Part shown: positions 10,709 to 14,625 of the stretch, in pieces
How positions within the stretch are numbered: position 1 is the first letter of the stretch
Layout of the letters: every line of letters starts with the position of its first letter
IMG/VR virus record: IMGVR_UViG_3300020044_007282
Coordinates: 1-33,229 of that record
Strand: one strand, 5' to 3'
Length of the DNA: 33,229 nucleotides
Source: a virus
Lineage: Duplodnaviria > Caudoviricetes
Program-made: the position numbers and the translations under genes
The notes under the pieces: generated by a model
What the model was told of the DNA's origin: nothing
Database searches by the model: none
What the model saw: the letters and a program-made list of their open reading frames with translations, nothing else

Positions 10709-11239
10709 ATGAAAATTTACACAATCCCCGAATTCGAACTTTATTACCACAACGAATACAAACGGTCAAACATGAATCAAGCATTTTGGCAAACATTACC
10801 GATTGAGCGATTCAACCTCAACAAAAAGAAAGTTGTTAAGAAGCGAAAAGCGGAGCTCACGACAAACCATTTGGATTTGCCAGTGAACAACATCCTGCAG
10901 CATAAAGAAACCAAAGATGCTTTTAACACTAATAAGTTTACCGACCTTATTATTGCTTACCTTAAAGCAGTACACAGTTGCAATAGTGCAAGGCGCATAA
11001 GTAGTGAGGGCCGATATCGAAAGGGGATAGGTTACATTGCAGGATTAAACAAAGGTATGGAGGACATTCAATGTATTCTTAAAGGGAAACTTTTTGCAAT
11101 CGAAGTCAAAAGTCCAAGTGACCGAATAGGCGAAGCGCAACTAAAGCGCAAGGCAGCACTTGAAGCCGATGGCGGGCATTACATTATTGCTACATCGTTT
11201 GAGCAGATGCAAACGGATTTATTGAGCATATTAAAATAA
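10709..11239 (+). CDS. VRR-NUC-domain nuclease (Holliday junction resolvase-like)
   Basis: GMEDIQCILKGKLFAIEVKS...Q...GG.Y. Confidence 0.8.
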   Translation: MKIYTIPEFELYYHNEYKRSNMNQAFWQTLPIERFNLNKKKVVKKRKAELTTNHLDLPVNNILQHKETKDAFNTNKFTDLIIAYLKAVHSCNSARRISSEGRYRKGIGYIAGLNKGMEDIQCILKGKLFAIEVKSPSDRIGEAQLKRKAALEADGGHYIIATSFEQMQTDLLSILK

Positions 11240-11251
11240 TACTTATCTTTG
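11222..11251 (+). promoter_or_regulatory. Promoter for the packaging operon
   Basis: TTG-N19-TATCTTTG. Confidence 0.55.
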
Positions 11252-11295
11252 TGCAATGAAAGTTTTATGGCATAGTGCGTTAAATTGCGATAAAT

Positions 11296-11562
11296 ATGGC
11301 AATAGGTAAAAAATCGGGTGGAGGTAGTCGAAAGGGCAGCCCCAACAAACTGACAAAATCAGTTAAAGAAGCGTTTGAAATTGCGTTTAGTGAATTACAG
11401 GAAGACAAGGAAGCTAAACTTACTAACTGGGCCAAAGAAAATCCAACCGAGTTTTACAAGTTGGCTGCTAAACTTATTCCAACATCTGTTAATGCTGATT
11501 TGACAAGCAAAGGTGAAGCAGTTAAAATGTGGCAAGTAGAATTTGTAGATGCTAAAAAGTAA
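11296..11562 (+). CDS. terS: Terminase small subunit
   Basis: GKKSGGGSRKGSPNKLT N-terminus, FYKLAAKLIP, and a position immediately before TerL. Confidence 0.7.
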   Translation: MAIGKKSGGGSRKGSPNKLTKSVKEAFEIAFSELQEDKEAKLTNWAKENPTEFYKLAAKLIPTSVNADLTSKGEAVKMWQVEFVDAKK

Positions 11563-13905
11563 AGTAAAAATTAACGAAGCATACCGCCCCGCACTTTTAA
11601 GCCAACATAGATACTTGGTATTGAAAGGCGGGGCGGGCTGATTGGATCTGGCAAATCCATAGCAGCAGTTCAAAAGATAATCCTGCGCATCACAACCGAG
11701 CAAGGTCATCGCATACTTTGCATTAGAAAGGTAGCAACCACCATTCGTAATAGTGTGTATCAGTTATTTGTCGATAAGCTATTAGAGTACGATATATTTA
11801 GCGAATTCACTATAAACAAAAGTGAGATGCGATTTACTCACAATCCAACAGGCAACGAAATATTATGTGCCGGTATGGATGACCCCGAAAAAATTAAATC
11901 AATTGCCGGTATCACATCTGTTTGGTGCGAGGAAGCAACAGAGCTTGATGAATTAGATTTCAATCAGTTGGAGTTAAGGGTGCGAGGCGAAACAAACAAC
12001 TACAAACAGTTTATTATCACATTCAACCCCATTTCGGAGCAACACTGGATAAAGCGCAGATTCTTTGATGAACCTGATGCTGAAACCATGTTGATGAACA
12101 CGACCTATAAAGACAATTCATTCCTCGATGCCGATTATATTCATCACTTAACCGAACGTGTTAAAGCTAACCCAAACCTGCACAAAGTTTATGTGCTTGG
12201 CGAATGGGGGAAAGTTGATTTTGGGGGTGAGTTTCTTAAAAGCTGGTCCACAATCAAACACACTGGCATTGTAACTTATGACCCATCCCTCGCCATTTGG
12301 CTTTCGTTTGATGAAAACGTAAACCCATATTTTCCTTGTGGCATCTTTCAAATTAGTGATGACAACGAGATAAGATTGATTGATTGCATTGCGTTAAAGA
12401 ACCCCGACAACACAACCAAAGCAATGGGCAGGGCAATAATGCAACGGTTAAGACATTGGAAGCATAACGGCCATGTTTATGTTTGTGGCGATAGCACCAG
12501 CCAAAAGGATGACGTTAAACAAGAAAAGGGCTTTGACTTATTTCGCTTACTAATCAATGAATTAGATGAAGTTAAACCGATTCGCAGAGTGGCTAAATCA
12601 AATCCAAATGTGCGCCCAAGTGCTGACTTCTTTAATGCTATTTTAGGCTACAATGAGCAAGGCATTAGTTTTATAGCTGATGAAAGTTGCAGAGTTGCAA
12701 TATTAGATTTTGAGAATACAAAGGAGGATAAAAACGGCAAGGTAGATAAGCGCACAGTAACCGATCCTGTGACAAAAGTAAGTTACCAGCCATTTGGCCA
12801 TTTTTGTGTTATTGGTTCTACAATGATAAAAACTATTAACGGTGAAAAGCGAATAGATACCATTACAACTGAAGATAAGGTGCTAACAAGATGTGGATAC
12901 AAAAAAGTTTTAGCAGTTCACAACAATGGGTTAAAATTAGTAAATAAATATAAGTTAAATAATATTGAAATCACTTGCACACCAGACCATAAAATATTTA
13001 CTTACAACTTTGGATATATTGAGATACAAAAATTAGTAACATATTGGATACAACAAGATATATTTATTTGTATATTTGATGAAAATAAAAAAATATGCAA
13101 ACAGAAATTATTGAGTATAATGGTGAACGATTTACACGTTACCCGCAATCAACAAACAGAACAGAACGCGTTTACTTTAGTGGATGGGTTAAAATCAATG
13201 GTAAACAATCAAAAAAAAGGCTTCATTGGTATAAGTATTTTATTGAAGTTGGCGAAATACCTAAAGGATTTCATATCCATCATATTGATGAAAACCCGCT
13301 TAATAATTCAATCGAAAATCTACAACCTATTTGCGGTAAAAAACATATTGGTGAACATGCCAAAAAAACACTGGAAACAAATCCAATACACAAAGCTAAA
13401 TTTCATGCAGCAGGTATTGAGGCCGCAAAAGTTTGGCATAAATCAGATGCAGGCAGAGAGTGGCATAGTCAACTTGCATCAAGAAGAATGTCAGAACGCG
13501 AATACATTACAAAACAATGTTTGGTTTGCGAAAAGGAATATAAAACAAGGGCATTACAATCAGAAACAAAATTTTGTTCCAATAATTGCAAATCAGAATA
13601 CAGACGTAGAAGCGGAGTTGATAACATTAAAGCACAATGTATTGTTTGCGGATGCGAGTTTGTTAAAAGTAAATATAATGCAAAAAAATGTTGTTCAAGA
13701 AAATGCTCAACAAGTTTACGACTTAACAGTTGACAGTTGTCATGAATACTTTGCTAATGGTGTTTTACTTCATAATTGCGACATAACAAGGTACTTAATT
13801 ACATCGGTATTCGCCTCACAATATGCCCGCTTTCAAACAGGAATTATCAAACCGCTCGTTGTTGTGGGTAGAGATGCTGAATATAAATCAGCAAGTAGAT
13901 TTTAG
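11549..13905 (+). CDS. terL: Terminase large subunit (PBSX-like), with a recoding site at 11636-11646 and an intein at 12805-13776
   Basis: The 11549 frame gives RYLVLKGGAG then a stop; the second frame continues GSGKS...GMDDPEKIKS...WCEEATE...TFNP...LGEWG...SFD...GHF[intein]CDITRY. The predicted mature protein is about 458 aa. Confidence 0.9.
11584..11646 (+). promoter_or_regulatory. Candidate translational recoding signal (hairpin followed by GGC-TGA-TT-GGA)
   Basis: CCGCCCCGC (11584-92) pairs with GCGGGGCGG (11628-36); the stem extends to about 21 bp with two bulges and ends at the Gly codon before TGA. Confidence 0.6.
13071..13094 (+). promoter_or_regulatory. Putative internal promoter -7 element and A-rich leader for the nested HNH gene
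   Basis: TATATTTG (13071-78), then GAAAATAAAAAAAT-ATG; the -33 TTG spacing (24 nt) is suboptimal. Confidence 0.45.
13095..13733 (+). CDS. HNH homing endonuclease with C-terminal Cys4 zinc fingers, nested out of frame inside the intein
   Basis: RLH...GEIPKGFHIHHIDENPLNNSIENL...H; two CxxC...CSxxC repeats. Confidence 0.88.
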   Translation: MQTEIIEYNGERFTRYPQSTNRTERVYFSGWVKINGKQSKKRLHWYKYFIEVGEIPKGFHIHHIDENPLNNSIENLQPICGKKHIGEHAKKTLETNPIHKAKFHAAGIEAAKVWHKSDAGREWHSQLASRRMSEREYITKQCLVCEKEYKTRALQSETKFCSNNCKSEYRRRSGVDNIKAQCIVCGCEFVKSKYNAKKCCSRKCSTSLRLNS

Positions 13906-13950
13906 TTACATTTTTACATTATATCGAATAATTTATTATTATTTTGCACT

Positions 13951-14625
13951 ATGGCACGATTCTTAAAAACCTCCGACTATCTTTCAATAATTCAAACGGT
14001 TGACCTCAATCAGATAACCGAGAACACCCCGCAAAACTTGTACGATAGCGAGGTTAAGGCCATAAGCAGAATGCGCACTAAATTGGTGCAGCGTTACATG
14101 GTTGACATCGAATTAGGCACAATGGATGCCTATTCAGCAACAACACATTACCGCACACGTGACAGAGTGATATTAGGCGAAGTAATCACACACGTTAATG
14201 ACTTTAGCAGATGGGATAATAAAACCGAATACATTATAGGCAACATTGTAACAGATGACAATGGTTATGTTTACACAGCTATTGCAGCAAGCACAAACCA
14301 ACCTTTGACATTAACTGCATACTGGTCTAAAATGATAAACATTGCAACAAGCAACGCAACCTATTGGACTGTTGGCGATAATCGTTACCCAATGTTTGTG
14401 GAGCTTGCAATGGACATGACATTGTATAACCTGCATGCACGTATAAACCCGCGTAACATACCCGATTTGAGAATAGAACGCAATAGAGAAGCACTTGACC
14501 AATTAGATGCGTGGGCAAGTGGCACAGATACCGCTGAGGTGTTAAACATCAATTCAACCGATAGCACTGGTTATTCTATACGCTACGGAAATAGTTTAGA
14601 CAAACAAGATAATTTCTTTAAATAA
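13951..14625 (+). CDS. Head-tail adaptor, Mu gp36/DUF1320-like, with an inserted aromatic repeat domain
   Basis: R.PM...MDMTLYNLHARINPRNIPDLRIER..EA...L C-terminal pattern; lies before the portal. Confidence 0.7.
   Translation: MARFLKTSDYLSIIQTVDLNQITENTPQNLYDSEVKAISRMRTKLVQRYMVDIELGTMDAYSATTHYRTRDRVILGEVITHVNDFSRWDNKTEYIIGNIVTDDNGYVYTAIAASTNQPLTLTAYWSKMINIATSNATYWTVGDNRYPMFVELAMDMTLYNLHARINPRNIPDLRIERNREALDQLDAWASGTDTAEVLNINSTDSTGYSIRYGNSLDKQDNFFK

Follow-up and report, generated by a model that had tools for sequence, protein, structure and literature searches.

A phage terminase gene with an intein, an HNH gene nested in another reading frame and a candidate 8-nt hop at the Walker A motif

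Introduction

The TerL intein of brucellaphages, with an HNH gene lying out of frame inside it, has been in print since 2015 (PMC4422536). More recently, a preprint described non-canonical inteins of actinobacteriophages with an endonuclease VII-like homing endonuclease in frame 3, and proposed their origin by invasion of a free nuclease (10.1101/2025.01.02.630785). Here, we analyse terL of the virus record IMGVR_UViG_3300020044_007282 (Duplodnaviria; Caudoviricetes). The whole record, 33,229 bases, is referred to as the window. Its terL contains a continuous intein, an HNH gene nested in the intein in another frame and, further 5', an 8-nt break in the Walker A motif. The novelty of the nested layout was overrated in an earlier sequence-only reading of this DNA because both sources above already describe it.

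Brucellaphage Tb (GenBank JN939331) resembles the window in that its continuous TerL intein contains an HNH, annotated as a gene of its own, in another frame. The Tb HNH is in frame 2 (offset 1), and its intein is in the ATPase half of TerL (RAD/C...HN/CVIIDD, slashes marking junctions). Conversely, the window HNH is in frame 3 and the intein is in the last nuclease motif. In the Tb nuclease, a PF01844 HNH, the Cys units precede the core, whereas the window has an HNH_3 core followed by the Cys units; only ~50 residues of the two align, with 34% identity. The inteins of the preprint share with the window the same strand, frame 3, a continuous intein and TerL among the hosts. The window family (HNH_3/phrog_15471, found in phages of several phyla) differs from those endonuclease VII-like inteins as described, although the two sets may overlap.

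The ShiLan domain (PMC11855218) also hides a zinc-finger HNH in frame 3, within an insertion across which the host frame stays open. However, it has no intein and its host is a non-essential methylase; the window has full splicing motifs in an essential gene. In fractured genes with split inteins (PMC2677866), a nuclease with its own start is found between the intein halves, as at 11 of 80 loci of the HNH family described below. The nucleases in that source are GIY-YIG and Vsr-like, and the window intein frame is unbroken.

For the Walker A break, the bypass candidates in the terminase of Streptomyces phage Hau3 (PMC10732093) are likewise short frame-breaking inserts in an essential phage gene. 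We read the first Hau3 gap, at ...KGWG/KD, as Walker A. The Hau3 case involves a rare UUA, whereas the window gap is 8 nt and would be triggered by a stop codon. Bacteriophage T4 gene 60 (10.1101/2024.12.09.627546; 10.1101/2022.08.31.505936) shares with the window gap a Gly take-off codon, a stop codon, a Gly landing codon and a 5' stem-loop. The gene 60 gap is 50 nt; that of the window is 8 nt, with a landing codon that is often wobble-mismatched, and it is polymorphic in the wild population. A linked homing nuclease cassette of the gene 60 type was not found by the window gap, within 2.5 kb in 72 alleles. We found no paper on this Walker A gap in the literature searched, most subscription journals being outside it.

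Results

An intein and an HNH gene in overlapping frames

The intein spans positions 12805..13776 of the plus strand, on which all features given here lie. It encodes 324 aa, from Cys1 to His-Asn, and is continuous in the terL frame. Class 1 inteins are marked by Cys or Ser at position 1, a TxxH block B, a block F, a terminal His-Asn and Cys, Ser or Thr at +1. All of these (Hint) marks are present: the Cys1 codon is at 12805, TPDH (T59-P-D-H62) at 12979, VYDLTV at 13714 and HEYFANG at 13741; H323-N324 ends at 13776 and C+1 follows at 13777. Residues C1, H62 and N324 are invariant across 39 aligned inteins; L045 was left out of this alignment, and of the distance and insertion-point comparisons below, for a wrong C-end call.

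In Pfam, the intein frame matched Hint families only (Intein_splicing, E 4.8e-8; 33.4 bits, slightly below the 35.8 cut-off). No nuclease family was found in this frame with Pfam or PHROGs, and the in-frame homing endonuclease of a canonical intein is absent. The ends of an AlphaFold model have a predicted local distance difference test score (pLDDT) >90, and the middle is of lower confidence with four stretches <50. The model had 40 matches in the PDB at E <=0.001, headed by inteins; the best was the gp41-1 intein (1e-6). The frame has 0 stops, so the host open reading frame (ORF) is unbroken, unlike that of a split-intein or fractured gene. From the single essential terL, and four cultured carriers, we infer that the intein can probably splice out of TerL.

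The nested HNH gene (13095..13733) occupies frame 3 with respect to terL (offset 2) and encodes 212 aa with an HNH_3 core and two Cys4 units. Its stop codon, TGA (13731-13733), spans V309/D310 directly after VYDLTV of the intein. Pfam matched the frame to HNH_3 with E 1.3e-9; at E <=0.1 the matches were HNH_3 and HNH, with no endonuclease VII family. All 10 of 10 PHROGs matches are HNH. The AlphaFold model has a pLDDT of 96, and its best PDB match, I-HmuI, is weak (E 2.3e-3). The catalytic core is intact in the window; all 42 nested rows agree at HNH residues H62, H63, N71, N75 and H84 and at the first four Cys.

Across the overlap, 0 stops were seen in the host frame. Genome codon usage predicts 9.9 (0 of 20,000 trials reached 0) and synonymous shuffling of the HNH's own codons predicts 4.3 (P 0.0003). 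The equivalent frame of 21 other window genes has 16.8 stops per 212 codons. All five NTA codons of the window HNH are followed by C. Thus, most of what the sequence-only reading had described was recovered: the complete intein, the lack of a recognisable endonuclease in its frame, the separate HNH with two Cys4 units, its own ATG and a stop overlapping block F, the codon bias and the openness of both frames. Its description of the DNA as very AT-rich did not hold, since GC is 34% in the overlap and 36% in the genome. An assembly indel as the origin of the nested frame was ruled out. Contigs from two public runs (X1, X5) cross the intein without a net indel, and both frames are kept in the independent assemblies L001, L002 and L142.

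The start of the nested gene is conserved. An ATG is found 7-22 codons 5' of the anchor in 36 of 40 nested clusters, against a background of ~1% per codon in that frame; the TG of this ATG comes from a Trp or Cys codon of the intein. The window ATG has A at -3, and Shine-Dalgarno (SD)-like words lie 5' of 15 of 39 nested HNH starts (controls, 11%). The sequence TATATTTG (13071..13078), 16 nt 5' of the window ATG, matches the Bacteroidota -7 promoter box (consensus from PMC6847099) and is a weak candidate for an internal promoter. The HNH is likely made separately, from its own ATG. At L029, L050, L062, L068 and L070 the HNH start codon draws on a Trp codon in the conserved G-W strand of the intein and lies 11 codons further 5'; hence, the overlap extends into the splicing domain.

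Selection was measured as the ratio of non-synonymous to synonymous substitution (dN/dS). For six informative nested pairs, the HNH frame gave 0.23-0.43 and the host (intein) frame 0.78-1.03; five further pairs had <=5 changes. The closest nested pair has an HNH value of 0.23. Host-frame values near 1 indicate that the intein filler is nearly neutral apart from stops. Judged by stop counts and substitution patterns, the nested HNH is a real gene under purifying selection in its own frame.

Nested, split and free states of the HNH family

The out-of-frame HNH is conserved in homologous terminase inteins. We retained 80 viral loci from 99 HNH relatives. At 56 of the 80, the host frame has no stop, always in the same second frame; the third frame is open in none. 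Once the window and L142 are included, clustering at 70% identity gives 53 clusters, 41 of them nested. Of 42 representative rows, 40 allowed us to place both ends of the intein, within host ORFs. When 27 host ORFs were scanned, 24 matched a terminase or intein/Hint family and 22 matched a terminase family. The insertion points are four neighbouring positions in the last terL nuclease motif (22, 10, 3 and 2 of 37). An NTA codon followed by a purine occurs in 0 of 153 cases in nested HNHs compared with 54 of 93 in non-nested ones; the zero follows from how nested loci are defined, the contrast with non-nested loci does not.

The 24 non-nested viral loci consist of 11 with the HNH between split-intein halves, two with the HNH after a terL that has a mini-intein and 11 with a free-standing HNH after terL. 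Nearly all of the 80 loci are in or beside terL, the exceptions being a few short loci. Among GenBank phage records, 39 matched the HNH and seven were examined. Four (OZ038341, LK985322, HQ225832 and OP947163) are nested; the gene is annotated simply as TerL and the HNH is unannotated. These nested cultured carriers are Acinetobacter Highwayman, Clostridium phiCDHM19, Tetrasphaera TJE1 and Rhodobacteraceae LS06-2018-MD07. The other three have a free-standing HNH, a broken host frame around the HNH and a frameshift respectively. In the cultured phages L167 (AY855346) and L164 (NC_055736) the element is apparently frameshifted or split, possibly by decay or old sequencing errors.

On a quick HNH tree (L079, with a broken HNH frame, was left out) the nested label changes five times, four of them forced by strong branches, and free and split forms lie among the nested ones. 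Nesting is the commonest state of an old family, in whose tree split and free forms are mixed. Loci L017 (1162-3636) and L019 have a terL mini-intein at the same motif, directly followed by a free-standing HNH of the family with a TACCTTTG box. The free-standing HNH is weakly sister to that of the window, and the mini-intein and HNH are a possible collaborative-homing pair. Locus L035 (17-2707) has a second terL intein near the N-terminus, besides the split one at the C-terminal motif.

Empty alleles

We retained 80 close terL loci from 484, of which 75 gave a full, ungapped N-extein. The intein is present, in frame, in two of the 75 alleles and the site is empty in 73. Empty-site joints are found in all four public metagenome runs compared with the window, which are of lake water. 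The carriers are scattered: the nearest N-exteins to that of the window (91-92% DNA identity) are empty, and L104 pairs with an empty allele (support 0.998). Between the window and L001, the intein DNA is 96% identical and the flanks are 89% and 83% identical. The first 290 nt of the intein, outside the overlap, are also 96% identical. The patchy distribution, and an intein more alike than its flanks, suggest homing.

The empty target had been predicted as GHF/CDITRY. None of the 73 empty alleles has this sequence. Instead, the empty allele reads G-H-I/V-D-L-T-R-Y, with Val at +1 in 73 of 73. The -1 codon (12802..12804) is TTT (Phe) in all three carriers and encodes Ile in 70 of 73 empty alleles. 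Thus, carriers have Phe at -1 and Cys at +1, and the exchange is sharp, involving only a few flanking codons. With Val at +1 in every empty allele, the nucleophile likely arrives with the element through short co-conversion, a possibility on which PMC11855218 speculates. The empty alleles L106, L107 and L133 have S-H-I in place of G-H-I at the target and are possibly nuclease-resistant variants.

The Walker A gap

A 5' interruption of terL, at 11639-11646, had gone unreported in the earlier account of the gene. From its ATG at 11549, terL reads LVLKGGAG, meets TGA at 11639 and resumes GSGKS in another frame. The 8-nt break is TGATTGGA. Hence, terL is written as two pieces. The first, 30 codons from the ATG to the take-off Gly codon (MLKSK...LVLKGGAG), is at 11549..11638; the second, beyond the gap, has 752 codons. 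Because the gap lies 5' of the intein frame, that frame would not be reached from the terL ATG without recoding. The candidate hop (11636..11646) consists of the take-off codon GGC (11636-11638), TGA (11639-11641), TT and the landing codon GGA (11644-11646), with TCT at 11647 the next codon read. A long mRNA hairpin of 53 nt (11584..11636, -30.8 kcal/mol) is predicted to end on the first base of the take-off codon.

We examined 76 terL alleles for the gap. Four were too short, leaving 72 readable. The gap is present in 40, and 32 read GGAGSGKS directly, the residues of the 5' piece continuing straight into SGKS. In 40 of 40 gap alleles the take-off codon is GGY (38 GGC, 2 GGT), followed by TGA or TAA, 2 nt and GGN. 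The landing codon is GGC in 22, GGA in 15 (window included) and GGT in 3, and so GGY in 25 of 40. All 13 distinct gap alleles are predicted to form a hairpin that ends at the take-off codon, with energies of -28 to -33.5 kcal/mol and z scores of -4.8 to -7.7. The same region of 18 of 19 distinct intact alleles has -3.7 to -14.3 kcal/mol. Across 29 aligned gap alleles, 99% of stem cells are paired and there is one compensatory pair, C-G to A-U.

Downstream of the gap, terL has a dN/dS of 0.044 among gap alleles and 0.041 among intact alleles, with no internal stops. The complete genome has a single terL, and its downstream ORF is under selection. An assembly error or pseudogene was rejected as the cause of the gap, given its presence in 40 of 72 alleles, the dN/dS of 0.044 and the single terL. 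An intein at the GGAG/S junction in relatives was also rejected, as none of 18 pattern matches resembles a terL intein. The gap is scattered over the terL tree (17 changes; 19 for shuffled labels). In a search for the gap pattern with the length fixed at 8, other lengths being outside the search, terL of this group accounts for 41 of the 43 viral matches and 9 of the 94 from metagenomes; we treated the rest as chance. Taken together, these patterns indicate that the gap is likely a programmed ribosomal hop.

In the alleles L081-L160, the small-subunit gene and the first 20-30 terL codons occur in several unrelated versions on near-identical terL bodies. By this comparison, the region upstream of Walker A is a recombination hot spot. 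Allele L083 (991-1095) has an intact Walker A with the 5' arm of the hairpin. Downstream it is nearly identical to gap allele L094, which indicates recent gap loss or a recombinant.

Genome setting

The virus record that forms the window is complete; it has terminal repeats and a single Terminase_3 match. The portal is Mu-type (Pfam), and tail sheath, baseplate and major head genes are present (PHROGs). A BT4734-like gene (Pfam), and TANNTTTG boxes 5' of several window genes, suggest a Bacteroidota host. The probable terminase small subunit (11296..11562, 88 aa) is named for its position directly 5' of terL; its only match is phrog_11043, of unknown function. The N-extein 3' of the gap, with the ATPase and nuclease (Terminase_3), is at 11647..12804 and the 42-aa C-extein, beginning with Cys+1 (TGC; the Val position of the empty alleles), is at 13777..13905. 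The gene 3' of terL (13951-14625) has a weak C-terminal match to Mu gp36 and a weak tail-fibre-like middle stretch.

Discussion

We consider it likely that the window terL carries a continuous intein, predicted to splice, together with a frame-3 HNH that is made from its own ATG and homes, and that ribosomes hop the Walker A gap. In such a scheme, UGA would enter the A site and peptidyl-tRNA-Gly would leave GGC. The peptidyl-tRNA would slide 8 nt as the upstream hairpin closes behind the ribosome, re-pair at GGA and resume at SGKS. The hop would yield a 782-aa precursor with a normal GGAGSGKS loop, the same protein as that of intact alleles. Splicing would then remove 324 aa to leave a 458-aa TerL; the ~210-aa filler would be discarded and need only stay stop-free. 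In mixed infections, the separately translated HNH would nick or cut terL alleles that lack the intein, close to the H-x-x-D-x-x-R-Y nuclease motif. Repair would copy in the intein and a few flanking codons, supplying the Cys+1 missing from empty alleles. The dual-coded mobile element of the sequence-only reading fits the selected HNH, its conserved start and the homing-like patchiness. Its further proposal, in which a free-standing HNH entered a mini-intein, describes one plausible route.

Several observations weigh against this reading. The element is a rarity among close alleles (2 of 75), and the terL population recombines freely; hence, scatter alone is no proof of active cutting. Nested HNHs have a higher dN/dS (0.23-0.43) than six non-nested pairs (0.07-0.15), and the overlap suppressing synonymous change, or weaker selection, may be the cause. 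Splicing-domain and HNH distances correlate weakly (Mantel rho 0.28). A TANNTTTG box lies 5' of 3 of 39 nested HNH starts, window included (control, 3.6%). Genome-wide, 65 such boxes were seen and 56.9 expected, which is not above chance; since the box is not enriched, we treat the internal promoter as a lead only. Of 40 gap alleles, 15, among them that of the window, have GGA as the landing codon, a wobble mismatch to GGC. The intact allele L083 has a hairpin, albeit weaker (-21.7 kcal/mol), and the lone compensatory pair is confined to one related group of four alleles. Among 72 alleles, no nuclease gene within 2.5 kb is associated with the gap; apart from three nested copies, no HNH cluster lies within that distance.

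The main rival to a hop is a -1 frameshift across the gap. This would give G-G-A-G-L-I-G-S-G-K-S, so keeping the GxxGxGKS pattern. The -1 frame is open for 12 codons 5' of SGKS and the P-site GGC could re-pair to GGG in 36 of 40 gap alleles, the other four having an upstream T-TTA-AAG heptamer. However, the window has no slippery heptamer, and 4 of 40 alleles would need GGY to re-pair to TGG at that codon. Furthermore, the hairpin is 5' of the site, not 3', all 32 intact alleles read exactly GGAGSGKS and a Gly codon is found exactly 8 nt on in 40 of 40. We regard such a shift as unlikely, but worth keeping in view.

It is improbable that the HNH is an intact passenger, no longer homing, in an element spread by ordinary recombination. 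Its rarity, the raised dN/dS and the heavy recombination across terL would fit. Conversely, dN/dS is well below 1 even in the closest pair, the catalytic residues are invariant, the intein is more alike than its flanks and the sharp exchange takes in only a few flanking codons.

Very unlikely is a -1 frameshift from the intein frame into the HNH, producing a TerL-IntN-HNH fusion. The HNH is in the -1 frame relative to the intein, an A7 run precedes the window ATG and an X-XXY-YYZ heptamer lies in the open stretch of 10 of 40 nested loci. Such a fusion exists in nature as the 823-aa database protein P0080, which is in frame, ends without a C-terminal intein block and is known from the protein alone. 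It is the only in-frame TerL-HNH fusion among 324 longer candidates, and is weak evidence either way. The other 30 of 40 loci, window included, have no such heptamer, and TAA lies two codons 5' of the window ATG; the conserved ATG position and the SD-like words also argue for separate initiation.

We give still less credence to removal of the 8 nt from the RNA, as a micro-intron or by processing, or to a terL restart beyond the gap from a codon other than AUG. The gap is flanked by conserved RNA structure, and the main frame offers CTG and ATT codons just 5' of GSGKS; however, there is no Rfam match in 11000-14200, and a restart would lose RYLVLKGG, a conserved strand that all 40 gap alleles retain. 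Least probable of all, the HNH could be a terminase cofactor in packaging kept in or near terL for the benefit of the phage, as raised for brucellaphages (PMC4422536), which would suit the location of nearly all 80 relatives but not the lack of the intein in 73 of 75 close alleles, the scarcity of HNH clusters by the 72 alleles or the closest HNH fold being a homing nuclease.

The likeliest account is therefore a hop, splicing and a homing HNH with its own start. We go further only tentatively, to a combination that falls somewhat short of probable. Here, one essential gene would bring together a stop-triggered, hairpin-driven 8-nt hop, splicing and a nested nuclease with its own promoter. The hop would be a nuclease-free, horizontally spreading cassette of ~60 nt, present in over half of the wild population and likely shielding Walker A from homing elements or tuning the terminase level. 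The HNH family would be an old specialist of the terL 3' end, moving between nested, split-intein and free states and rewriting the +1 codon to Cys so as to invade sites otherwise unspliceable.

Many TerL inteins filed as 'degenerate', or left unannotated, probably carry a live frame-3 nuclease, as the four cultured phages suggest. Within a single data set, the HNH family displays nested, split and free-standing stages, as proposed by models of intein origin. Conversion of Val to Cys at +1 would enable an intein to colonise a site without a nucleophile. To our knowledge, natural programmed bypassing is limited to very few genes. The 8-nt gap, which occurs naturally alongside alleles without it and combines a 53-nt hairpin with both matched and unmatched landings, would offer a compact test of forward sliding driven by mRNA that folds behind the ribosome.

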